The position numbers were made by a program, and so were the translations under genes. Shown piece by piece: positions 23,110 to 59,636 of a DNA stretch of 64,000 nucleotides. Below the pieces are notes generated by a model, which ran no database searches, was not told the origin of the DNA, and worked only from the letters and a program-made list of their open reading frames with translations. Source of the DNA: Clostridia bacterium (GTDB lineage Bacteria; Bacillota; Clostridia; Saccharofermentanales; UBA5734); contig JAXGZQ010000001.1 in NCBI GenBank assembly GCA_040776905.1, positions 795,280 to 859,279 on the forward strand, given 5' to 3'. How positions within the stretch are numbered: the stretch's first letter is position 1; each line of letters opens with the position of its first letter.

Positions 23110-23868
23110 TTATCCGCTGTATTTTTCAGGATCACTGAAAATCAGATGTGCACCACCGTCCATGATCATGGTCGTGCCGGTCAATGATTGTGTAAACGGT
23201 CCGCAAAGAAACAAAACGACCTGGCCGATTTCTTCGAGAGAAATCCAGCGTCTGAGCGGGATTTCTTGATAAGTCGGTTCCTTTTTGCCCATACGGGGGG
23301 CCCCGGTATCAACATAGCCGGGAGCCAGACAGTTGACTCTGATTCCATAACGGGCAAATTCCATCGCGGCAGCCTGCGTCAGGCGGTTGAGCGCGTACTT
23401 CACGCTGCCGTACAGGGAATTGCCGGGGATGACCATATCAGACTGGTTTGAGCCGATGACAACAATGCTCCCTTTTGTTTCCGTTTCGATCATCCAGCGT
23501 GCCGCCTGCTGGATACAGAAGTAGGTTCCTTTCCAGTTAAGATCACAGATGCGGTCGAATTTCTCTTCTGTTACATTGACGATCAGATCGCCGTCGGTGA
23601 TGCCAGAGTTGTTGACAAAAACATCCAGATGCCCGAACGTTTCACGGGCTGCCGCAAACAGTGCTCGTATCCCTTCCACAGACGCGATGTCCGCCTGGCA
23701 GATCACAGCAGTTCCACCGAAATGTTCAATCCCGGCCTTAAGTGCTTCAGCCCCCTTTGAGCTGCTGTTGTAGTGGATCATAACCGAATATCCGGCCTTC
23801 GCCAGCTCCAGGGCGATGCCATATCCAACCCCCATACCAGCGCCTGTGACCAATGCTGTTTTTCCCAT
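23110..23868 (-). CDS. SDR-family oxidoreductase
   Basis: TALVTGAGMGVGYG (TGxxxGxG), NNSG and the YGSVK (YxxxK) catalytic motif. The start is taken at MGKTALV with GGAGGA upstream. Confidence 0.85.
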   Translation of the reverse strand: MGKTALVTGAGMGVGYGIALELAKAGYSVMIHYNSSSKGAEALKAGIEHFGGTAVICQADIASVEGIRALFAAARETFGHLDVFVNNSGITDGDLIVNVTEEKFDRICDLNWKGTYFCIQQAARWMIETETKGSIVVIGSNQSDMVIPGNSLYGSVKYALNRLTQAAAMEFARYGIRVNCLAPGYVDTGAPRMGKKEPTYQEIPLRRWISLEEIGQVVLFLCGPFTQSLTGTTMIMDGGAHLIFSDPEKYSG

Positions 23869-23923
23869 GCTGTCCTCCATCTGGAATCATATCCTCAATT
23901 CGGTTTGTGGTGACGTTTCAGAC

Positions 23924-48956: not shown

Positions 48957-49047
48957 TGGCGGAGGGCAAGAGATTTGAACTCTCGTTACGCTATTAACGT
49001 AAACACGATTTCCAATCGTGCGCCTTAAGCCGCTCGGCCAACCCTCC
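48957..49047 (-). tRNA. tRNA-Ser (anticodon GGA), CCA encoded
   Basis: Hand-folded 91-nt sequence: acceptor GGAGGGT/GCCCTCC, 3-bp D stem, anticodon stem CACGA/TCGTG with loop TTGGAAA, long variable arm TTACG-ttaatag-CGTAA, T arm GAGAG-TTCAAAT-CTCTT, then GCCA. Confidence 0.9.
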
Positions 49048-49125: not shown

Positions 49126-49269
49126 CGAAAGCGGCTAGAAAAGCCGCCTTCTTGCGCTTTGCCGGGCAGAGCATGATAATGGGATCAGGCTTATGTGACC
49201 AAATGCACGGATGATTGGCCGTTCAGCCGTTATCCTGATGAGGAGTCAAAAACTTTGGAGGGATTGCCT

Positions 49270-50259
49270 ATGGATTTCAGTCTGAATCTCAGCTCCGGCC
49301 TGTTCGCCAACGATCAGAAGTTCAAGACATTTGAACAGGGGCATGTATACGATCTGATCATCATCGGGGGTGGACCGGCCGGTCTGACGGCCGCTGTCTA
49401 CGCGATGCGCAAGGGATTGAGCACCGGCCTGATTACACGCAATGTCGGTGGGCAGGTCGCGGATACCGCGGGAATCGAGAACTATCTCGGCTATCGCTAT
49501 ATTGACGGCAGTGAACTGGTGGATAAATTCCGTGAACAGGTCCTCCAGTTCAGTATCGCGTTTGAATCGGACAGTACCGTTCAGTCACTGACACCTGGCC
49601 AGCCCATACAGATCACGCTTGAAGACGGACGTATTCTCAAGGCTCGTTCTCTGATCATCGCGTCCGGCAAACAATCGAAGAAATTGGGAATACCGGGAGA
49701 AGATAAACTGGTCGGACATGGTGTCGCCTATTGCGCGATCTGTGACGCACCCTTTTTCGTCGATCAGAGAGTCGTAGTGGTCGGCGGAGGCAATTCAGGC
49801 GTCGAAGCGGCGATTGATCTGGCCAAGGTAGCCCGTCATGTCACCCTGATCCAGCGCAGAGACCACCTGACCGCCGATCAGATCGTCATCGACAAGCTGA
49901 AAGCGTACGAGAATGTTGATTATCTGTTTGAGCATATTGTGACTGAGATTCGCGGTGATCAACATGTCAGCAGTGTGATGGTCCAGAATCGCCAGACCGG
50001 GGAAGTCCATGAGATGATGACCGATGGGATTTTTGTTCAGATCGGTTTGATTCCCAACAGCGCGTTCGCAAAAAATGTACTGGACATGAATGAGTACAAT
50101 GAGATCGTCATCGATGAATCCTGCCGCACAAGCGAGCCGGGAATATTTGCCGCCGGAGATGTGACGACGACGCGTTACAAGCAGATCATCATCGCCAGCG
50201 GCGAAGGCGCGACCGCTGCTCTGTCAGCTGCGGACTTCTTGCTGAATCAACCGTCCTGA
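49270..50259 (+). CDS. thioredoxin-reductase-like / AhpF-C-terminal-like FAD/NAD(P)H disulfide oxidoreductase
   Basis: The start is taken at ATG 49270 with GGAGGG upstream. The track ORF begins at GTG 49195. Motifs: DLIIIGGGPAGLTAAVY (FAD), a CAIC redox pair, VVVGGGNSGVEAA (NAD(P)H) and GDVT. Confidence 0.8.
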   Translation: MDFSLNLSSGLFANDQKFKTFEQGHVYDLIIIGGGPAGLTAAVYAMRKGLSTGLITRNVGGQVADTAGIENYLGYRYIDGSELVDKFREQVLQFSIAFESDSTVQSLTPGQPIQITLEDGRILKARSLIIASGKQSKKLGIPGEDKLVGHGVAYCAICDAPFFVDQRVVVVGGGNSGVEAAIDLAKVARHVTLIQRRDHLTADQIVIDKLKAYENVDYLFEHIVTEIRGDQHVSSVMVQNRQTGEVHEMMTDGIFVQIGLIPNSAFAKNVLDMNEYNEIVIDESCRTSEPGIFAAGDVTTTRYKQIIIASGEGATAALSAADFLLNQPS

Positions 50260-50389
50260 AACGGGAACCAGCGATACGGAAATATCGTAATATTGTCTTA
50301 TAATTAAATACGATAATGATTGATAAATTTGATTAACACAATCATATCAACGGTTTTAATAAATAATTAATAATACGGAGGATTAGAAC

Positions 50390-51031
50390 ATGGCTTTATT
50401 TGATGATAACATTCAAAAACAACTGAAAGAAATTCTTGACCAGATGGTTGGAGATGTCACCTTATTGTTCTTTACACAGGAGATTGAGTGCCAGACATGT
50501 AAAGACACCCATGATTTCGTCAACGAAATTGCCGGTCTCAATGATAAGCTGAACGTCAAAACGTACAATTTTGTCAATGATAAAGAAAAAGCAGAAGCAT
50601 ATGGCGTTGATAAGGTCCCGGCCATCGTTCTGCTTGATAAGGACGGCCAGGATACCCGTATGAAATATTACGGTATCCCCGGCGGCTACGAAATCAATTC
50701 ATTCCTGGCCGGTATTCTGATGGCATCCGGCCGCGATGAACAGATTCCCGCCGAGCTGAAAAAACGGATTGCTGCGATTGACAAGCCCGTCCATATCCAG
50801 GTTTTCGTTTCGCTCGGTTGCCCGCACTGCCCCAACGCGGTGATGACAGCGCATCTGCTGGCCCTGGAAAACGAGAATGTCAAAGCAGACATGGTGGAAA
50901 CCAGTACATTTACCCACCTGGCTGTCCGCTATAATGTCAGCAGTGTTCCGAAGATCGTGATCAATGAAGAGCATGATTTTGTTGGTGCGCAGCCCCTGCC
51001 CCATTTTCTTGATGTCATCGAAAAAGCCTGA
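50390..51031 (+). CDS. two-domain thioredoxin-fold protein disulfide oxidoreductase (AhpF-N-terminal / glutaredoxin-like PDO type)
   Basis: 213 aa with two thioredoxin-like halves carrying CQTC and CPHC motifs. GGAGG sits upstream. Confidence 0.65.
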   Translation: MALFDDNIQKQLKEILDQMVGDVTLLFFTQEIECQTCKDTHDFVNEIAGLNDKLNVKTYNFVNDKEKAEAYGVDKVPAIVLLDKDGQDTRMKYYGIPGGYEINSFLAGILMASGRDEQIPAELKKRIAAIDKPVHIQVFVSLGCPHCPNAVMTAHLLALENENVKADMVETSTFTHLAVRYNVSSVPKIVINEEHDFVGAQPLPHFLDVIEKA

Positions 51032-51128: not shown

Positions 51129-52340
51129 TCAGTTCAGATTCATCAACTGACGCGTATTGCTGCCGAGGATCCGGCATCCGATCCGCTCAGCTTCAGTGAT
51201 GTCGTAATAACCGCTGGCCACCTGTTCTGCCAGTGCCGCGGCCAGACAATGGCGGACGGCCAACAGCGCGCCATAACTTTCTTCGCTGGTCCATGTGTCG
51301 CAGCCCCAGACAATCCGTCTGGCATCTGAGACCTCTGTCGCTTCCCTGATGAACTGAATGGCCCTTGCCGGAGAAATAATCGGCAGCCAGCACAGGTCGA
51401 TGTAGACATTCTGGAACACATGGGCCAGTGCCAGAATATCGTCTGTCCAGGGGAATGACCCGTGAAACAGATCAAACCTGACATTCTGATGCCGGCTGAT
51501 CAGGGGACGCAGATTCATCGCGGCCGTTCCGTCCAGCTGACCCAGGCCCGTGTGGATCTGTACCGGCAGCCGTAAATCAGCCGCGATGGACATCAACTCA
51601 TCCATCAGAAGATCGTGGAATGCCCGGACGTCCTGCAAAGCTGCATCGGTTTGTCCAAAAGCCCGTTCAGCTTTTGTCCGGTCAGGCGGCAGAAACAGCA
51701 AGTCGCGCTCATATGCCATCGCGACCTTGATCGCCACAGTATGATGTGAATCACGCGCCTGCGTGATCGTCAGCCGGATGGCAGCCAGATACTCATCCAG
51801 CGACAGATCTGACGAAAGGCCCAGTACGTCATAAGGGCTGACACCGTCGTGATCACGTGCGCCGCGGTCATAGCCGCTGAAGAAAGCGTCGCATCGAAAC
51901 GTCGGATGGAAGATTTCCGGATGTCCGTTGTCGGATCCGGGATCACGGTACTGATCAAGAATCACGGCCTGATAGCGGCAGCGATTATGCAGTACATCAA
52001 GGTGATGTGTTTCTGTTTCATGCGCCAGCCGGATCGCCCGGTCGTAATCCTCCCAACTGTCCGCATTCAGCGGCTGTTCTTGCGGGTACAGTGCTTCAAT
52101 CGCCTGGAACAGCCAGAAAGAATAGCTGTTGCAGCGAAAATCATCAAAAAATCGGCGGCGCGCTTCACGATCATGAACGTCAGAACGCGAAGCCATCCAG
52201 CCGACATAGGACTGCTGCAGCAGCCGGGACAGAGTCAGTGATTGCATCTCCTGATCCGGCAGATGATGGCAGTGGGTATTATAGACAGGCACTGTCTGCC
52301 AGTTCTCCAGCAAACGGTGCCGGATCATCTCAAGCGGCAT
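51129..52340 (-). CDS. amidohydrolase-superfamily (metal-dependent TIM-barrel hydrolase) protein
   Basis: 403 aa. N-terminal ...YNTHCHHLPD (HxH metal motif), later ...HTG...FHGSFPW... The family call is by pattern only. Confidence 0.5.
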   Translation of the reverse strand: MPLEMIRHRLLENWQTVPVYNTHCHHLPDQEMQSLTLSRLLQQSYVGWMASRSDVHDREARRRFFDDFRCNSYSFWLFQAIEALYPQEQPLNADSWEDYDRAIRLAHETETHHLDVLHNRCRYQAVILDQYRDPGSDNGHPEIFHPTFRCDAFFSGYDRGARDHDGVSPYDVLGLSSDLSLDEYLAAIRLTITQARDSHHTVAIKVAMAYERDLLFLPPDRTKAERAFGQTDAALQDVRAFHDLLMDELMSIAADLRLPVQIHTGLGQLDGTAAMNLRPLISRHQNVRFDLFHGSFPWTDDILALAHVFQNVYIDLCWLPIISPARAIQFIREATEVSDARRIVWGCDTWTSEESYGALLAVRHCLAAALAEQVASGYYDITEAERIGCRILGSNTRQLMNLN

Positions 52341-52447: not shown

Positions 52448-52456
52448 TGCTATAAT
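52448..52456 (+). promoter_or_regulatory. extended -10 element (TGCTATAAT) upstream of the nucleosidase/radical-SAM pair
   Basis: TGnTATAAT matches exactly, 64 nt upstream of the ATG at 52520. Confidence 0.35.
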
Positions 52457-52519
52457 CACGATGCATCGGACAAGCTGAATCGTCCGTGATGGTGTAGCTT
52501 GCAGACCGGAGGAGTTCAT

Positions 52520-53455
52520 ATGAGCATCAGCCTTTCGACAACTGAATATTCCGGCCGGATTCTCTGGGTCGTCGCGCTTCAGATTGAAGCGAAACCTCTG
52601 ATTCAGCGCTTCAATCTCCGACGCGACATGGACGAACACCACTGGCCGGTCTATGGGAATGGATCGCACCGTCTGATCATCAGCGGTGTCGGTCAACTGA
52701 ACGCGGCCATGGCAGTGACCTGGCTGCTGGCAAGAGAGGATGAAATGCCGGCCGCCCTGATCAATGTCGGGCTCTGTGGCAGCAATCATCCCGATCTGCC
52801 CCAAGGGACACTCCTTCAGGCGAGTTCAATCACTGACGCGGCATCGCGGCGGATGTTCCTGCCGGATCTTTATACAGACTGGCCGCTGCCGCGGCATCCC
52901 CTGACCTGTTTTGATCAGGTGGTCGACGGCCGTTCCCAGGTGTCCGATGAACCGCTCACCTGTGATATGGAGTCAGCGGGAATCATGACGGCCGGACGGC
53001 GTTTTCTGCAGACGCATCAAGTCCATCTGTTTAAGGTGGTCTCGGATCGGCTGGATCCCCGGTCCGTTGACCGAGATCGGATCAGCCACTGGCTGGACGA
53101 TGCGGTTTGCCGGATCGCTGATTTTCTGCCCGATATCATGTCGCTTGCCGGGCAGGCGGATTCGGATGACACCCGGGAAACAGAGGCCATCCTGGCGATG
53201 GCTGAGACAAAGCTCCAGCCCAGCGGGTCAATGCGCCGGCAGATTCAACAGGAAGTCCGACTCGCCCTTCTGCGCGGACTCAGCCAGGAATATATCATCA
53301 GCCAGCTGCCGTCCGTTCCGGTCACCAGCCGGTATCAGGGCAAGCAGGAACTGCAGCGCTGGCGCGACGCACTGGTGACGGCGGCCGCAGAGCAGAAACA
53401 GCATCAGGTTCAATCTGGCCAGGATGGCCGGACCGGTTCAGGCAGAACGATATGA
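52520..53455 (+). CDS. PNP_UDP_1-superfamily nucleosidase (MTA/SAH-nucleosidase-like) with about 110-aa C-terminal extension
   Basis: The start is at an ATG with GGAGG 7 nt upstream. ...IISGVGQLNAAMAV... and ...CDMESAGI... resemble the MTAN/Pfs phosphate-ribose and catalytic motifs. I do not recognise the last 110 aa or so. Confidence 0.55.
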   Translation: MSISLSTTEYSGRILWVVALQIEAKPLIQRFNLRRDMDEHHWPVYGNGSHRLIISGVGQLNAAMAVTWLLAREDEMPAALINVGLCGSNHPDLPQGTLLQASSITDAASRRMFLPDLYTDWPLPRHPLTCFDQVVDGRSQVSDEPLTCDMESAGIMTAGRRFLQTHQVHLFKVVSDRLDPRSVDRDRISHWLDDAVCRIADFLPDIMSLAGQADSDDTRETEAILAMAETKLQPSGSMRRQIQQEVRLALLRGLSQEYIISQLPSVPVTSRYQGKQELQRWRDALVTAAAEQKQHQVQSGQDGRTGSGRTI

Positions 53456-54483
53456 AGCGGCTTTACCGGACAGTCTACCTGGAAAAACAGGCCAAAGAAC
53501 GGCCGCTGACGAGCCGGATCCTGGAACGACTGCCGGACTGTCCAGTGGTGGTTGTTGAGAATTACAAGCAGGCCTTCAACCGGCCCGGGCAGAATCAGCG
53601 GCTTCAGAAACAGTCTCCCGCTCTCATTCTGGCGGTTCATCCCGATCCACCGATCTATCCCGGACCGGCCATCTGCCAGAATTTCGGCCAGACGCGATTT
53701 GTTTATACCTCGTTTGTCCAGAATTGCCCGTTTGACTGCAGCTACTGCTTTCTTCAGGGTCTTTATCCGTCGTCGGATCAACTGATTTTTGTTAATCCGG
53801 AAGACTGGGCACACCGTCTTGCGCAGATGGCCGAAGACGGTCCCCTTTACGCGGCGTTATCACATGATTCGGATCTTCTTGCGCTGCAGGCCCGGTTTCC
53901 CCTGCTCGACCCGCTCGGTGATGATTGGCCTCAATCACCATCGATTCAGGCTGAAATACGAACAAAAAGCAGCTGGACCGGTTATTATACGCAGCATCAG
54001 CCACGTCAGAATCTGATCTTCGCTTTCTCGCTCGCGCCGCAGCCGCTGATTGATCTGTACGAACCGGTCACGCCGACATTGCGCTCCCGGCTGCTGGCGG
54101 CTCGTACCGCGCTCGATCACGGACACCCGGTGCGGCTCTGCTTTGACCCTGTCTTTGCTGATCCGGTCTATGATCACCTCTACGAGACTTTTTTCACGGA
54201 GGTTTTCCAGACCCTCGACCCTACCCGGCTGCACGATGCCAGCTATGGCTTCCTCCGGCTGCCCCGAACACTGTATCGACGGATCATTCAGCGGCGTCCG
54301 AACGCGCCATTCCTGGCTGAATCCTTGCAGCTAAGCGGTGAGACCGTCGGCTACGCGGCTGTGCGGCAGGCTGAAATTCGCCAGCGGCATCTGAACTGGC
54401 TGTCATCTTATCTCAGGAAAGATCAGATCTTTCTGGTTGAAGACACCGAAGCATCATGTCAGTTTGCTGATCAGACCCCGTAA
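53452..54483 (+). CDS. spore-photoproduct-lyase-family radical SAM protein
   Basis: ATGA overlap with the upstream gene. It carries a CPFDCSYC (CxxxCxxC) cluster motif. The length (343 aa) and N-terminal layout are collinear with my memory of B. subtilis SplB. Confidence 0.7.
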   Translation: MKRLYRTVYLEKQAKERPLTSRILERLPDCPVVVVENYKQAFNRPGQNQRLQKQSPALILAVHPDPPIYPGPAICQNFGQTRFVYTSFVQNCPFDCSYCFLQGLYPSSDQLIFVNPEDWAHRLAQMAEDGPLYAALSHDSDLLALQARFPLLDPLGDDWPQSPSIQAEIRTKSSWTGYYTQHQPRQNLIFAFSLAPQPLIDLYEPVTPTLRSRLLAARTALDHGHPVRLCFDPVFADPVYDHLYETFFTEVFQTLDPTRLHDASYGFLRLPRTLYRRIIQRRPNAPFLAESLQLSGETVGYAAVRQAEIRQRHLNWLSSYLRKDQIFLVEDTEASCQFADQTP

Positions 54484-55052
54484 TCCGCGACATATTCAAT
54501 CGCGGCTACCATATCCTCTTCCATCAGAAACAGGAGGATCGACTCGCCGCGATGATAAGCCAGAGCGGTTCCCTGTAATTCGTACTCATCACCATACGCT
54601 TCGATGACATCCTCTCGAGTTGAGCCGATCCGGATCCCCTCCTCAGTCGCGACGGTGTCATCCAGCAGGACAATCAGCGAGATATGATCCTCTCCACCTT
54701 CCGGAACAGTTGAGATCTCAAAACTGCTGTAGGTATAGATTTTATCCAGTCCCGCAAAAGCACAGCTCTCCGCTTCAAAATAGCTCATGGCTTCGCCCAG
54801 GTCGTCAATCACTTGATCCGCCAGGGCAAATGGCGCGATTTTCACCGACTGGTAAGTGAATGTGAACAGATCATCGGCAGCATCGCCATTCGGAGTTGTC
54901 GCAGGCTGGCCGGTTCCGGACGGCGCTTCTGCGGTGCCGGAAGTGGCGGCGGAACCACAGCCTGATATGACCAGCCCGCAGATGATCAGGATGATCAGTA
55001 AAGGCCAGTGTTTCCCAGAAATATTCTTTTTTGATTGATTCATTTGCATCAT
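54471..55052 (-). CDS. lipoprotein of unknown function (last gene of the dlt-like operon)
   Basis: LIILIICGLVISGCGS lipobox. GGAGG sits 5 nt upstream. There is a 71-nt gap from the upstream gene on the same strand. Confidence 0.6.
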   Translation of the reverse strand: MMQMNQSKKNISGKHWPLLIILIICGLVISGCGSAATSGTAEAPSGTGQPATTPNGDAADDLFTFTYQSVKIAPFALADQVIDDLGEAMSYFEAESCAFAGLDKIYTYSSFEISTVPEGGEDHISLIVLLDDTVATEEGIRIGSTREDVIEAYGDEYELQGTALAYHRGESILLFLMEEDMVAAIEYVADYGV

Positions 55053-55123: not shown

Positions 55124-56221
55124 CTACTGCTCATCTTCCGGCTCCGGCGCACGGGCACCAAAGCTTTTCAAGTAGCCATACTGTTCAATCTCCCGATGCT
55201 GGGCGGCCGCCATTTCATCGTAGCGGTTCACTTTTTTCTCCCAGACCGCACTGAGCCGCGGATCATTGCGATGATCTTCCAGATTATAGGCAGCCTGCAG
55301 AAGCGGACCGAAATAATGAGACATCTTCTCAGCGCCGCTCAGATTAAGATGAAGTCCGCTGTCATACGTGTCCTGCGTAAAATCGAGTCCGATGTCATCA
55401 ATTACTTCGAGAAAGTTGATGTACATCAGCTGATGTTCGTCCGCGTAGACCCGCATCTGTTCATCCCACTGATCATACCAGTATGGGTAGAGGCTGGGAG
55501 CTTTAATCAGGACCAGTTCGATATCATGCTGTTCACACAGTTCGACCATTTTATCCAGATAGGCATAGGCACGATCACCAAACTGGTAATCCGGCAGCGG
55601 TCGTCCAACCGGAACGTTTTCCGCCGGACGGACATCGGCCCGCATCAGGAAACCATTATGTGCGACCGGGTCGCGGCGGAACAGATATCTGACATCCTCA
55701 CTGGTCAGTTCACTCCAGCGGGCTTTATAGCGAAGCAGTGGAAAAAAATAAGAGATCAGGCTCTCATCTTCGGTCATCGACGCCATCGCGGAACGGATCT
55801 TCGGCAGACCGAGCCGCATCCCGTCAATATTCAGCCGATTATACGGCTCGCTCTGCGGCTGGTCATACTGCATGCCGAGCGCACTGAAAATAACAACCCG
55901 CGGTGTTTCATAACGGAGAATTTCCTCCAGCATATGGTAAGACTGCCAGATCAGCTGCTGGCCGCTGCCACTGATGTAGCTGGTCAGGCCATATTCCCGC
56001 CATAACGTGATCGGTGAGAAATTTTCATAAACCTCACAGTCACCGATGAAAATGATATCGTTATCGCCGGTGTTCTCATAATACTCAGCAATTAATGCTC
56101 CTTCGGGAATTTCCGACATATATTTCGGCATGACCAGCTCCTGCAGAACCAGCAGGATGCTGATCAGCAGGACGATCGCGACAAGATATCGAAAAAAGGT
56201 TCCTGTTCTCTTTTTTGTCAT
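55124..56221 (-). CDS. membrane-anchored SGNH/DltD-like protein (Cys at the block-I nucleophile position)
   Basis: N-terminal TM. Block-I-like IIFIGDCEVY and block-V-like YDSGLHLN (DxxH). AGGAG RBS. It follows the MBOAT gene after 10 nt. Confidence 0.5.
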   Translation of the reverse strand: MTKKRTGTFFRYLVAIVLLISILLVLQELVMPKYMSEIPEGALIAEYYENTGDNDIIFIGDCEVYENFSPITLWREYGLTSYISGSGQQLIWQSYHMLEEILRYETPRVVIFSALGMQYDQPQSEPYNRLNIDGMRLGLPKIRSAMASMTEDESLISYFFPLLRYKARWSELTSEDVRYLFRRDPVAHNGFLMRADVRPAENVPVGRPLPDYQFGDRAYAYLDKMVELCEQHDIELVLIKAPSLYPYWYDQWDEQMRVYADEHQLMYINFLEVIDDIGLDFTQDTYDSGLHLNLSGAEKMSHYFGPLLQAAYNLEDHRNDPRLSAVWEKKVNRYDEMAAAQHREIEQYGYLKSFGARAPEPEDEQ

Positions 56222-56231
56222 TCAAATGCTC

Positions 56232-57824
56232 CTAGAACTGATTATAGATAAATTGAGTCGAGTCGTAACCGATACCATAAGCGCCAAACAGCAGAATCGC
56301 GATCAGCAGCAATGAGTAAAGCGCGTAGCGCAGCGCGAACGGCCGCTGCCGGATGCGTTCACGTACACCGCCGGACCGCTGTACCAGACTGACGACGGCC
56401 AACAGCACAATTCCCGCCAGAAGAACCAGGTAGTCCGCCCGGTTCAGACCCAGCTGCAGCAGCGACCCATCTGTAAAGACCTCAAGCTTGAACCGGGTGA
56501 AGACAGACGTGTACATGCTCAGGGCTGTACCGATATCCCGGTAGATGTCAAAGATTCGAATTGAACACATGATCCAGAACATACGAGTCACCTGGAACAG
56601 GCGGAACCAGGTGGTTTGCTGCACAGAAAACCGGGCATGGAACCGGCGGTACAGCGGAATCATTTCCTGAGATACAAGAATGACCAGGCAATTGGCCATT
56701 CCCCAGGCGACGAAATTCCAGCTCGCGCCGTGCCAGATTCCGGTCGTCAGCCAGACCAGAATGGTTGCCAGATAGACGGGCAGCCGCTTACCGACCGCGT
56801 CACCAAGATGTTTACGTGCCCAGCCGGACAGACGCAGCATCGGCTGACTGACCGAGATCGGATAAAAGAGGTATTCCTTGAACCAGGTGCCCAGTGTGAT
56901 ATGCCAGCGGCGCCAGTATTCGGTGATGGATTTCGCGAAAAACGGCCGCTGGAAATTCTCAGTCACCTTAATGCCCAGCATCTGGGCGATGCCGATGGTG
57001 ATATCGATTCCACCGGTAAAATCAGCATACAGCTGAACCGCGTAATAGACCATGGCAATCAGGACATAGCTGCCCTGATATTGTTGCGGGTCACCGATGA
57101 TTGTTGAGACCGCGACCACAATCCGGTCGGCAATGACCATTTTCTTAAAATAGCCCCAGAGAATTCGCTGCAGACCATAGCTGACGGCCTGCCGGTCGAA
57201 TCCGTGCGGCTGGTACAGCGACTGCGCCAGATCATCGTATCGGCTGATCGGTCCTTGAATCAATTGGGGAAAGAACGAAACAAACAGCGCCAGACGGAAG
57301 ATATTACGTTCTGCAGGGTACTTGCCGCGGTGGACATCAATCACATAGCCCATACTCTGGAATGTATAAAAAGAGATACCGAGCGGCAGGGCGAGATTCA
57401 TGAATGTTAAGGTTTTTCCGCTGCCAAAGACCTGCAGCAGCGCATTGATATTGCCGATTGTGAAATTTCCGTATTTCAAAACACCGAGCAGGCCGAAATT
57501 AATCAGCAGGCACAGCAGCAGCCAGCGCCAGCGGACTGATCTTGCCTTATCACGGAAACTGCGTTTTTCCTGGCGGGACAGGCCGGCCTGATGCTCACTG
57601 AACCACTGTTTTTCCCGATCACGCAGCCGCTGCAGCTGCCGGCCGATCAGATAAGTGGATCCGGTCGTTATGAGCAGATAGGCCATGAACTGCAGACCGG
57701 CAAAACTGTAGAACAGATAACTGGCGGCCAGCAGCAGCATCCATTGATACCGCTTTGGAATCAGATAATAGGCAGCAAATAGCAATCCCAGAAACAGGAT
57801 AAACTCAAACGATACAAAACTCAT
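56232..57824 (-). CDS. MBOAT-family membrane O-acyltransferase (DltB/AlgI-like)
   Basis: 530 aa, polytopic. ...ITEYWRRWHITLGTWFKEYLFYP contains the conserved MBOAT His. Confidence 0.85.
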   Translation of the reverse strand: MSFVSFEFILFLGLLFAAYYLIPKRYQWMLLLAASYLFYSFAGLQFMAYLLITTGSTYLIGRQLQRLRDREKQWFSEHQAGLSRQEKRSFRDKARSVRWRWLLLCLLINFGLLGVLKYGNFTIGNINALLQVFGSGKTLTFMNLALPLGISFYTFQSMGYVIDVHRGKYPAERNIFRLALFVSFFPQLIQGPISRYDDLAQSLYQPHGFDRQAVSYGLQRILWGYFKKMVIADRIVVAVSTIIGDPQQYQGSYVLIAMVYYAVQLYADFTGGIDITIGIAQMLGIKVTENFQRPFFAKSITEYWRRWHITLGTWFKEYLFYPISVSQPMLRLSGWARKHLGDAVGKRLPVYLATILVWLTTGIWHGASWNFVAWGMANCLVILVSQEMIPLYRRFHARFSVQQTTWFRLFQVTRMFWIMCSIRIFDIYRDIGTALSMYTSVFTRFKLEVFTDGSLLQLGLNRADYLVLLAGIVLLAVVSLVQRSGGVRERIRQRPFALRYALYSLLLIAILLFGAYGIGYDSTQFIYNQF

Positions 57825-57847
57825 CCACGACTCCTCATCGCAAGTGA

Positions 57848-58084
57848 TTACTCATCAAGCAGCCGTGAGACCATCGCGGCCAGAGCCGGCGCCGAATTGA
57901 AATTCTCCGGTACGATCTCATTGGCGGGAATGGTCACATCAAACTCATTGCTCATTTCCGCGATCAGTGTCACGATATCGAATGAGTCGAGGATCTTATC
58001 ATCGATCAATGTCTGATGTGACGTGAAGTCAACATCCGGGTGCATTTCACTGAGAATTTCCATAATATCATCAACGAGTGCCAT
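57848..58084 (-). CDS. DltC-like aminoacyl carrier protein
   Basis: 78 aa. ...KILDSFDIVTLIAEM contains the phosphopantetheine Ser in a DS motif. The start overlaps the adenylase gene by 14 nt, with GAGGAG upstream. Confidence 0.8.
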   Translation of the reverse strand: MALVDDIMEILSEMHPDVDFTSHQTLIDDKILDSFDIVTLIAEMSNEFDVTIPANEIVPENFNSAPALAAMVSRLLDE

Positions 58085-59636
58085 GTTTCTCCTCTTTCTC
58101 CCCGGCCGGGCTTTTCCGGTCAGGCTTTGTCTGATCCAGCAGTCGGCGCAGCGACTGCCGGTCGATCTTCCGGTTGCTCGTCAGGGGCATGGTGTCAAGC
58201 TGGCGGACCACATTCGGCAGCATGTATCGGGGCAGCCGGCCGCGCAGAAACCGGCTAACATCAGCGGCCGGGGCCGAACCAACATAAAAGAGCCAGATTT
58301 TCTGCTTATCATGATCATACAGGCAGCCAGTATGCTCGACACCGCTGTACATGCCGGCGATGACTTCAATCTCACCCAGTTCTATCCGATGCCCCATATG
58401 CTTGATCTGCTGATCCAGCCGGGACATGAAAACCAGTTCGCCCCGTTCATTCAGCCGCCCCAGGTCACCGGTACGATAGATCAGTTCAGTGTAGGCATCG
58501 TTGAGCGGGTTCTGGACAAAGGCGGCCTGTGTTTTTTCAGGATCACGATAATATCCCATGGTCAAAGAGGTCCCGCGGATGCAGATCTCTCCGGGCTGAC
58601 CAGGGGCCGGGATCTTCTGATGTTCATCAAGCAGAAGGATTTCGGTATTCGGGAAGGGGCGGCCGATCGGAATGACTTCATTCAGTTGAAATTCCCGGTC
58701 AACTTCATAATAACAGCAGACACCCGTCGTCTCCGTCGGACCATACAAATTGATAAAGCGGGCCTCCGGCAGGGCCTGGCGCCATCGGTTGAACTGCTTG
58801 ATCGGAAAGACTTCGCTGGCGAAGGCGATTGTCTTCAGATGCTCCGGTAACAGCTGCTCGAGAACGCCCAGCCCGGATACCATGGTCAGGGCGGAGACGA
58901 CCCAGCAGATCGTGTTGATCCGATGCGTATTGAGATACTCGACCAGACGGAGCGGAAACATGAACAGCTGCTTCGGAATAATATAGGTGGTCGCGCCGAA
59001 TTTTAAGGTCGGGATGATTTCCTTGAGACAGGCATCGAAATACAACGGGGTCTGATTGCCGAATACCGTATCCGGGCCAAAATCGAGAAGTTCGGACAAG
59101 GTTTCAACATAACGGATCACCGATCGATGATTGGCGATGACGCCTTTGGGAATGCCGGTCGATCCTGATGTGAAGACGATATAAGCCGGATCGGTATCAA
59201 TCGCGCGGGTCTGCCTGTCAGCCAGCCGGTCTGCGTCTTCCGCGGCCAGGATCATCTCATTATAATGATACATCGCACTGTCCGGTGACAATTCCGCCGC
59301 CAGTTCACATGTCGAGTCATCACAGATCAGAGCCTTTGGCCGCAATTCGCGTAAAATCAGTTCGATCCGGTGAGCCGGCATTTCCTGATCGAGCGCGACA
59401 TAATAACAACCGGCGTACAGTACACCGAAAAAGGCGACGATCGGCCGGGGGCCTCGCGCCATGAAGACGACAACCGGTTCACGGTCATGCCCGTGAGCTG
59501 ACAAAAATGAGCCGATACGCCTTGCCTGTTCCCGTGTTTCGTGAAATGTCAGACTGGTCTCGCCATCGCTGAACGCCAGTTTTTCCGGCACCCGCTGTAC
59601 GATCATATCAAGATATTCCATCAGATGTTTCTGCAT
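58071..59636 (-). CDS. DltA-like amino-acid adenylation enzyme (ANL superfamily)
   Basis: A-domain core motifs are present: YIVFTSGSTGIPKG (A3), FDACLKE (A4), NLYGPTE (A5), YRTGD (A7), GRxDxQIKxxGxRIELGEIE-like (A8) and PLTSNRKIDR (A10). Confidence 0.85.
   Translation of the reverse strand: MQKHLMEYLDMIVQRVPEKLAFSDGETSLTFHETREQARRIGSFLSAHGHDREPVVVFMARGPRPIVAFFGVLYAGCYYVALDQEMPAHRIELILRELRPKALICDDSTCELAAELSPDSAMYHYNEMILAAEDADRLADRQTRAIDTDPAYIVFTSGSTGIPKGVIANHRSVIRYVETLSELLDFGPDTVFGNQTPLYFDACLKEIIPTLKFGATTYIIPKQLFMFPLRLVEYLNTHRINTICWVVSALTMVSGLGVLEQLLPEHLKTIAFASEVFPIKQFNRWRQALPEARFINLYGPTETTGVCCYYEVDREFQLNEVIPIGRPFPNTEILLLDEHQKIPAPGQPGEICIRGTSLTMGYYRDPEKTQAAFVQNPLNDAYTELIYRTGDLGRLNERGELVFMSRLDQQIKHMGHRIELGEIEVIAGMYSGVEHTGCLYDHDKQKIWLFYVGSAPAADVSRFLRGRLPRYMLPNVVRQLDTMPLTSNRKIDRQSLRRLLDQTKPDRKSPAGEKEEKHGTR

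Follow-up and report, generated by a model that had tools for sequence, protein, structure and literature searches.

The 64-kb stretch of DNA analysed here (contig JAXGZQ010000001.1 of a Clostridia bacterium, positions 795,280 to 859,279; hereafter the window) carries two overlapping genes on its forward strand. The first, open reading frame (ORF) A, encodes a 311-amino-acid (aa) protein with a nucleosidase-like domain, and the second, ORF B, a 343-aa radical S-adenosylmethionine (SAM) protein with the fold of spore photoproduct lyase (SPL). Both are genuine genes, with homologues recovered at E values down to 1e-204 (ORF A) and 1e-234 (ORF B), and their relatives are currently labelled in the source databases as "hypothetical protein", "DNA photolyase" or "SPL family radical SAM protein". 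We are highly confident that the two genes belong to a real, conserved and uncharacterised module, distinct from both the spore photoproduct lyase SplB and the housekeeping 5'-methylthioadenosine/S-adenosylhomocysteine nucleosidase (MTAN), i.e., MtnN or Pfs; a full-text search of the literature found no description of it. The features of the pair, given as window coordinates, are the following:

52448-52456, + strand: extended -10-like element TGCTATAAT, the sole exact match in the window, 64 nucleotides (nt) 5' of the ORF A ATG
52509-52513, + strand: ribosome-binding site GGAGG for ORF A, read from the sequence, 6 nt 5' of the ATG at 52520
52520-53455, + strand: ORF A, from the ATG at 52520 to the stop codon, whose last base is 53455; 311 aa, with an MTAN-like and a helical domain, uncharacterised family
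52559-53047, + strand: MTAN/futalosine-hydrolase-like alpha/beta domain, ORF A residues 14-176 (AlphaFold2 model, Foldseek, hhalign)
53072-53431, + strand: helical domain, ORF A residues 185-304, with helices at 185-232, 236-251, 256-261 and 271-304 (secondary structure of the AlphaFold2 model)
53452-53455, + strand: ATGA shared by the end of ORF A and the beginning of ORF B, read from the sequence; translational coupling
53452-54483, + strand: ORF B, from the ATG at 53452 to the stop codon, whose last base is 54483; 343 aa, a radical SAM protein with the SPL fold, from an uncharacterised subfamily of its own
53725-53748, + strand: radical SAM cluster motif C92-PFD-C96-SY-C99, invariant in 79/79 relatives, as is Y98

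The pairing of the two genes is not a matter of chance. A scan of 185,579 species representatives (one genome per GTDB species) returned at least 538 relatives of ORF B; 80 loci were fetched, and the ORFs of 83 sources (from a simple six-frame caller) were searched with a hidden Markov model (HMM) of the ORF A family. A nucleosidase-like gene lies immediately upstream and on the same strand in 76 of the 83 loci, spanning at least eight phyla, so that the search for nucleosidase partners of SPL-family proteins proposed in an earlier note (made by a model from the letters of this DNA alone) gave a clear positive answer. Three of these 76 loci (L015, L019, and L024) have both parts in one ORF. 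L015 and L019 are clear fusions, the protein of L015 being 643 aa long and matching both PF01048 and PF20903; L024 starts at a contig end, just the last residues of the nucleosidase domain being detectable. The ATGA overlap that the earlier note had described was located as listed above, and in 62 of 63 measurable loci the codon of a conserved tyrosine of the SPL-like protein (Tyr9) begins at most 29 nt past the nucleosidase stop, so that the two genes have no space between them; overlapping genes, and with them translational coupling, are thus the rule. Carriers on the Firmicute side comprise Clostridia, Lachnospiraceae (many of the carriers of the SPL-like gene are human-gut and rumen members of this family), Oscillospiraceae, Clostridiaceae, Caloramator, and Caldicoprobacter, and others are found in Fusobacterium, Leptospira, Balneolales, Opitutales, Neomarinimicrobiota, Bdellovibrionales, and Brevinematales. 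The module is common, with some 2,650 clusters of the nucleosidase and its SPL-like partner present in at least 538 of the species-representative genomes.

Regarding ORF A, the earlier note had assigned it to the PNP_UDP superfamily on the strength of the motifs GVGQLNAAMAV and CDMESAGI; both are present and the MTAN fold is matched in the predicted structure, though the score against PF01048 is only 30.6 bits and covers residues 51-114. In the model (pLDDT 92.6), residues 14-176 form a short alpha/beta domain of the MTAN type and residues 185-304 four helices. Foldseek aligned it with MTANs, futalosine hydrolase, and the short Chlamydia MTAN CT263 at E values of about 1e-12, always over the N-terminal domain only, and the best length-normalised structural matches were CT263 (TMt 0.71-0.74) and futalosine hydrolase. 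The domain assignments of both ORF A and ORF B are firm because the predicted structures match, even where the sequence models are weak.

A profile alignment to E. coli MTAN (hhalign, probability 96) equates E23 of ORF A with E12 of the E. coli enzyme, D149-M150-E151 with E172-M173-E174, K172 with R193, and S175-D176 with S196-D197, and all of these ORF A residues are invariant or nearly so in family alignments of 30 and 38 sequences. The three catalytic-type residues, i.e., the glutamate of water activation (E23), the glutamate that contacts ribose (E151), and the aspartate of N7 protonation (D176), are all retained, so that fold and catalytic residues are shared with MtnN. The family differs from MtnN in that R193 is replaced by an invariant lysine and in carrying an additional helical domain of about 120 aa; furthermore, MTAN S76 is not conserved, and the segment that shapes the 5'-alkylthio and adenine pocket in MTAN is approximately 40 residues shorter. 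ORF A scores far below every nucleosidase equivalog (MtnN NF004079, 18.8 vs 169 bits; MtnN TIGR01704, 15.9 vs 73.8 bits; futalosine hydrolase MqnB, TIGR03664, 36.2 vs a cut-off of 124.7 bits; HpnG, 15.8 vs 187 bits). Among 30 family members the NCBIfam matches, all below cut-off, were to futalosine hydrolase in 27, to the short PRK05634 nucleosidase in 24, and to MTAN in 18; HpnG was matched by 2 of the 30, at up to 1.6e-11. An exhaustive profile search placed 2,652 clusters (50% identity) in the ORF A family at E<=1e-30, typically 270-290 aa long and matching end to end. ORF A thus has the appearance of a working adenine-nucleoside hydrolase that represents a new subfamily. The earlier note had also considered that it might be the housekeeping Pfs of the genome sitting here by chance, a view contradicted by the NF004079 score, by the extra domain, and by co-inheritance with the radical SAM gene.

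The C-terminal part of ORF A, which the earlier note had called unrecognisable, indeed matches no known domain: the last ~125 aa gave no Pfam, NCBIfam or PDB sequence match, the helical domain had no Pfam match in 30 family members, and its profile retrieved only designed helical proteins and noise among PDB sequences (the single Foldseek run of the ORF A model was dominated by the MTAN domain). What had been missed is that this is no stray extension, for the domain is conserved in all members of the ORF A family and is tied to the radical SAM partner. Separate HMMs for each domain revealed that the last ~70 residues of the helical domain remain where the nucleosidase domain is absent or degraded, either joined to the SPL-like protein at its N-terminus or encoded just before its gene (e.g., in L006, L073, L009, L010, and L061, and in the metagenomic proteins P0074, P0075, and P0091); only L013 and L052 have neither domain. 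The radical SAM enzyme thus has its constant partner in the helical domain, which persists without the nucleosidase, and we infer that this domain docks on the enzyme or completes it.

ORF B was described in the earlier note as a CxxxCxxC protein collinear with SplB, and this description holds, with the motif at C92/C96/C99 and the SPL fold spanning the whole chain of the model. The three cysteines are invariant in all 79 relatives and the model matches radical SAM structures, which places ORF B in the radical SAM superfamily. In the predicted structure (pLDDT 94.0) it aligns with SPL (4fhc/4k9r) at TM scores of 0.78-0.80 over ~345 columns (E 8e-21), the next fold following at only 1e-4, and it shares both the N-terminal region and the C-terminal beta-hairpin, i.e., the full-length SPL fold. 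With the enzyme of Geobacillus thermodenitrificans (4fhc/4fhd) it has in common CxxxCxYC, with a tyrosine before the third cysteine (the invariant Y98, corresponding to Y96 of that enzyme), and the aligned polar residues D141, K172, E204, and R213. Even so, sharing the SPL fold does not make ORF B an orthologue of SPL: the two are 16% identical, the score against PF20903 (25.3 bits) falls below the gathering score of 27, and those against the SPL equivalog TIGR04070 (30.3 vs 400 bits) and against TIGR03886 (26.7 vs 437 bits) are far lower than required.

The region that in B. subtilis SplB reads EASCTSD reads AALSHDSD in ORF B, as previously noted, and the position of the catalytic cysteine (Bacillus C141, Geobacillus C140) is taken by H138; of the 79 relatives, 64 have Tyr there, 13 have His and none has Cys. 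Another cysteine, C75, which lies in the motif PGPxVCQxFG and had escaped the earlier note, aligns with the engineered cysteine of the SPL mutant 4rh0 (C140A/S76C), which we take to mimic the Clostridium-type hydrogen donor, and on this alignment C75 may sit at the Clostridium-type donor position. The alignment is, however, gappy at this point, and C75, present as Cys in 55 of 79 relatives, is missing from the non-Firmicute subfamily. SplB, moreover, is partnered by SplA and restricted to endospore formers, whereas the ORF B family (median isoelectric point ~7.2) occurs in Leptospira, Fusobacterium, Balneolales, Opitutales, and Neomarinimicrobiota and is partnered by the nucleosidase/helical-domain protein and by a short-chain dehydrogenase/reductase (SDR). 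As a side observation, the ORF B relatives split into two subtypes, the Firmicute one with PGPxVCQxFG (Cys75) and one with P.P.GFGIG..NYYFSH that lacks this cysteine; the second often has a cysteine two residues past the equivalent of SPL C140 (12/79).

The SDR is a third gene of the module that the earlier note had missed and that emerged from the clustering of neighbours. In at least 62 of the 83 loci, Opitutales and Balneolales included, the gene of a classical SDR (~240 aa; PF00106, without a more specific NCBIfam assignment) overlaps the 3' end of the SPL-like gene or comes right after it. It is absent from the present window, from its close relatives L002 and L083, from several Clostridiaceae and from Leptospira. 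A generic SDR does lie in the window 29 kb away (23110-23880, - strand), but with 82 bits, as compared to ~290-395 bits for the SDRs of the module, it is not of the module type. There are lineages that do without the nucleosidase and lineages that do without the SDR. Clustering of all ORFs within 7 kb in the 83 loci revealed no further conserved neighbours beyond the SDR: ABC ATPases, a mixed cluster (e.g., a LacI-type regulator), tryptophanyl-/tyrosyl-tRNA synthetases (TrpRS/TyrRS), and a small radical SAM activase-like protein were each found in at most 16 loci, and the genes directly upstream of the pair are unrelated among loci (MerR, ABC-F, YfhO, sulfatase, Na:Ala symporter, and others).

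What might such a module do? The overlap of an SDR with the SPL-like gene in so many loci points to a carbonyl step on a small molecule rather than to DNA repair, and the module probably serves a small-molecule pathway and not the repair of spore DNA. The earlier note had offered two views. In the first, ORF A is a clean-up or partner nucleosidase of a DNA-repair-type enzyme; the partnership has stood on all three counts by which the note would have dropped it (pairing in 76/83 loci, catalytic residues kept, no housekeeping Pfs placed there by chance), but the DNA-repair framing found no support, given the 30 vs 400 bits, the lack of the Bacillus-type cysteine, the non-sporeforming hosts and the SDR. 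Its second view, of a nucleoside-type module that is not concerned with spore photoproduct at all, fits better.

By analogy with MqnE (aminofutalosine synthase)/MqnB of the menaquinone futalosine pathway and HpnH/HpnG of hopanoid synthesis, we tentatively favour a scheme of adenosylation, adenine removal and reduction, whose order of steps and adenosylation chemistry we infer. ORF B would cleave SAM reductively, and the 5'-deoxyadenosyl radical would attach covalently to, or act on, an adenosine-type substrate, the product being a 5'-C-substituted adenosine. ORF A, with its helical domain docked onto or serving ORF B, would then strip adenine, as MqnB/MTAN does after MqnE and HpnG after HpnH, and the exposed ribosyl carbonyl, or another keto group, would be reduced by the SDR or, in the organism studied here, by an unlinked reductase. 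To our knowledge, MqnE with MqnB/MTAN and HpnH with HpnG are the sole established ties between a radical SAM enzyme and a hydrolase of the MTAN superfamily. We prefer this scheme because the two genes are tightly coupled and at times fused, because ORF A retains the residues of a hydrolase and an SDR gene follows in most loci, because both precedents add the 5'-deoxyadenosyl radical to a substrate and then remove adenine, because the ORF A family most often matches futalosine hydrolase, and because no riboswitch, defence system, phage or conserved neighbour indicates another role.

Futalosine hydrolase/MTAN and HpnG are documented to remove adenine after adenosylating radical SAM enzymes (PMC13459092). 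The three-step logic by which HpnH (adenosylhopane synthase) and HpnG (nucleosidase/phosphorylase) lead, via ribosylhopane, to bacteriohopanetetrol would map on a radical SAM enzyme, a nucleosidase and an SDR; in hopanoids the ribose is opened and reduced to a polyol without an assigned enzyme, a step predicted in a review to be non-enzymatic (PMC13459092). Neither precedent can be equated with the module, though. HpnH belongs to a radical SAM family other than that of the SPL-fold ORF B, no hopanoid genes and no squalene-hopene cyclase occur among the module neighbours, and most hosts are anaerobic Firmicutes. Likewise, MqnE (6xig) matches the ORF B model at an E value of 1e-2 only, ORF B having the SPL fold and not that of MqnE, no mqn genes are found among the conserved neighbours, and ORF A carries the extra helical domain.

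Several observations weigh against the adenosylation scheme. We know of no SPL-fold enzyme that adenosylates its substrate, and the reaction of SPL itself is a hydrogen abstraction. Neither this window nor approximately 16 other assessable loci have the SDR, and all similarities to MqnB and HpnG lie far below the family cut-offs. The nucleosidase domain has been lost or degraded in L009, L010, L052, and L061, which keep the SPL-like gene and the SDR, while L006 and L073 keep the SPL-like gene without an intact nucleosidase domain and lack the SDR too; hence the nucleosidase is not strictly essential, a circumstance that would suit a scavenger of a by-product at least as well. A housekeeping MTAN could substitute for the lost domain, as it does for aminofutalosine in some bacteria. 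A member of the ORF A family in Methylomonas has no SPL-like neighbour, an exception to the pairing.

The main rival, possible if doubtful, is indeed a scavenger. Here, ORF B would perform ordinary hydrogen abstraction on a small molecule, the SDR would handle its carbonyl product or precursor, and ORF A, tethered via the helical domain, would hydrolyse the inhibitory 5'-deoxyadenosine upon release. The retained MTAN catalytic residues, the tight coupling of the genes and their fusions all agree with this, as does the fact that SPL-type chemistry is hydrogen abstraction, and the shortened segment of the 5'-alkylthio pocket is in line with a small 5'-methyl substrate. That some lineages do without the nucleosidase domain, with the helical segment and the SPL-like gene persisting, is what would be expected if a housekeeping MTAN takes over, and it is explained more naturally in this way than by adenosylation. 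On the other hand, such a scavenger is without precedent: generic MtnN normally does this job, and we are aware of no radical SAM enzyme with a dedicated, co-evolving 5'-deoxyadenosine nucleosidase. It would also leave the main reaction wholly unexplained, together with the existence of ~2,650 clusters of a strongly diverged enzyme that matches futalosine hydrolase more often than MTAN.

An improbable alternative lets the nucleosidase act first: ORF A would split a nucleoside to free its base or a (modified) ribose, which the SPL-like lyase would then cleave or rearrange and the SDR would finish, in a salvage or catabolic route with the logic of QueK followed by QueL in C. difficile. The gene order (nucleosidase, radical SAM, SDR) is in keeping with this sequence of events, and AprD4/AprD3 offers a pairing of a radical SAM dehydratase with a reductase. 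MTAN-type aspartates protonate N7 of adenine, however, making 7-deazapurines improbable substrates, and the fusion of the helical domain to the radical SAM protein points to the two acting in a complex and not via a freely diffusing intermediate. A hydrolase and a radical SAM lyase are known to be combined in preQ1 salvage (PMC11477304, PMC11570991), and QueK and QueL are likewise encoded in one operon, which also has the QrtT transporter and a preQ1 riboswitch (PMC11477304). Neither of the latter was found at the module loci or in the window, and a linked transporter, tgt, kinase or riboswitch is missing from the module altogether. QueK belongs to another hydrolase family (IPR023186) and QueL, compared by family listing, is found only under the generic radical SAM domain IPR006638 and in no SPL family, and we therefore rejected queuosine salvage itself as the function of the module.

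Finally, it is very improbable that ORF B is a genuine, divergent lyase of spore photoproduct or another DNA lesion with the nucleosidase as its helper, for although the complete SPL fold with N-terminal region and beta-hairpin, the invariant Y98 and the alignment of C75 speak in its favour, spore-photoproduct repair is made unlikely by an SDR partner that is senseless in DNA repair, by the occurrence in non-sporeforming phyla and by the 370-bit shortfall against the SPL equivalog, to which the low identity, the absence of cysteine at the Bacillus-type position, the gappy and patchily conserved C75 and the near-neutral isoelectric point add further weight.

Should the adenosylation scheme apply, the module might represent a third, independent route of radical SAM adenosylation after those of MqnE and HpnH, in which an enzyme with the SPL fold would hand its product to a hydrolase dedicated to removing adenine and then to an SDR. 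We regard this as somewhat unlikely, but it would mean that thousands of anaerobic and gut bacterial lineages make a metabolite extended by a C5 sugar or polyol, and the SDR would be the first reductase known to act in the ribosyl-to-polyol step. The outcome would be either a new pathway of the adenosylation type or, for the first time, a 5'-deoxyadenosine scavenger devoted to a single radical SAM enzyme, and the chemistry, once worked out, would give a function to a large radical SAM subfamily. The natural fusions are a ready construct for biochemistry, and recognising that the family is not engaged in spore repair corrects a widespread mis-annotation.

With regard to expression of the pair, the extended -10 element indicated in the earlier note is present as an exact match to TGCTATAAT, but its support is weak: at least one copy also occurred in 22 of 100 shuffles, so it is weak evidence alone, and a consensus scan called no -35 for it. 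We consider it a plausible candidate promoter of both genes. A search of the whole window against Rfam detected no riboswitch or other leader 5' of the pair, the sole match being a tRNA gene (48960-49047, - strand). Downstream, the 3' end of ORF B overlaps by 13 nt the 3' end of a convergent 193-aa ORF (54471-55052, - strand), leaving no space for a terminator after ORF B; the encoded protein has a lipoprotein-like N-terminus and no Pfam family, and also occurs in L002 and L083.

Other genes around the pair were as follows. A 403-aa Amidohydro_2 protein (51129-52340, - strand) is encoded divergently from ORF A; the gene is syntenic in L083 and found at some distance in L002, and elsewhere it is no conserved neighbour of the module. 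Convergent with the pair is a Dlt-like operon (55124-59636, - strand), the synteny of which is repeated in L002. It comprises an adenylation enzyme (58071-59636; 249-256 bits against DltA models with cut-offs of 476-560), a 78-aa carrier-protein-like ORF (57848-58084), an MBOAT/DltB-like protein (56232-57824; 139 vs 375 bits), and a 365-aa ORF without a family match, and by these scores it looks like a divergent D-alanylation or acylation system and not a canonical dltABCD. Further upstream (49195-51031, + strand), a flavoprotein resembling thioredoxin reductase and the C-terminal part of AhpF (TIGR01292, 323 bits, just below cut-off) precedes a protein disulfide oxidoreductase (above the cut-off of TIGR02187 with 261 bits), and the two look like a split AhpF-like pair.

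Neither ORF A, ORF B, the SDR nor a fused protein had a match in PADLOC, and a defence system was thus discarded as an explanation. A phage origin was rejected as well, as viral contigs contain no close relatives and only distant, shorter SPL-like proteins. These proteins of the SPL superfamily (L088-L098, from IMG/VR) show 22-27% identity, lack the N-terminal region, match only profile positions ~85-260 (a few to ~337), and have no nucleosidase or SDR partner. In Methylomonas (CP043929.1 and CP160405.1; L084/L085, 8001-8837) the member of the ORF A family is located between a UPF0182 protein and a His_Phos_1 phosphatase. In Fusobacterium gastrosuis (L042, 8978-11620) further genes follow the three-gene module in the same orientation, encoding a metallo-beta-lactamase (MBL)-fold hydrolase, a family-4 uracil-DNA-glycosylase-like protein (below cut-off), and a 5-formyltetrahydrofolate cyclo-ligase, with a flavodoxin upstream on the opposite strand, an arrangement seen in this locus only.

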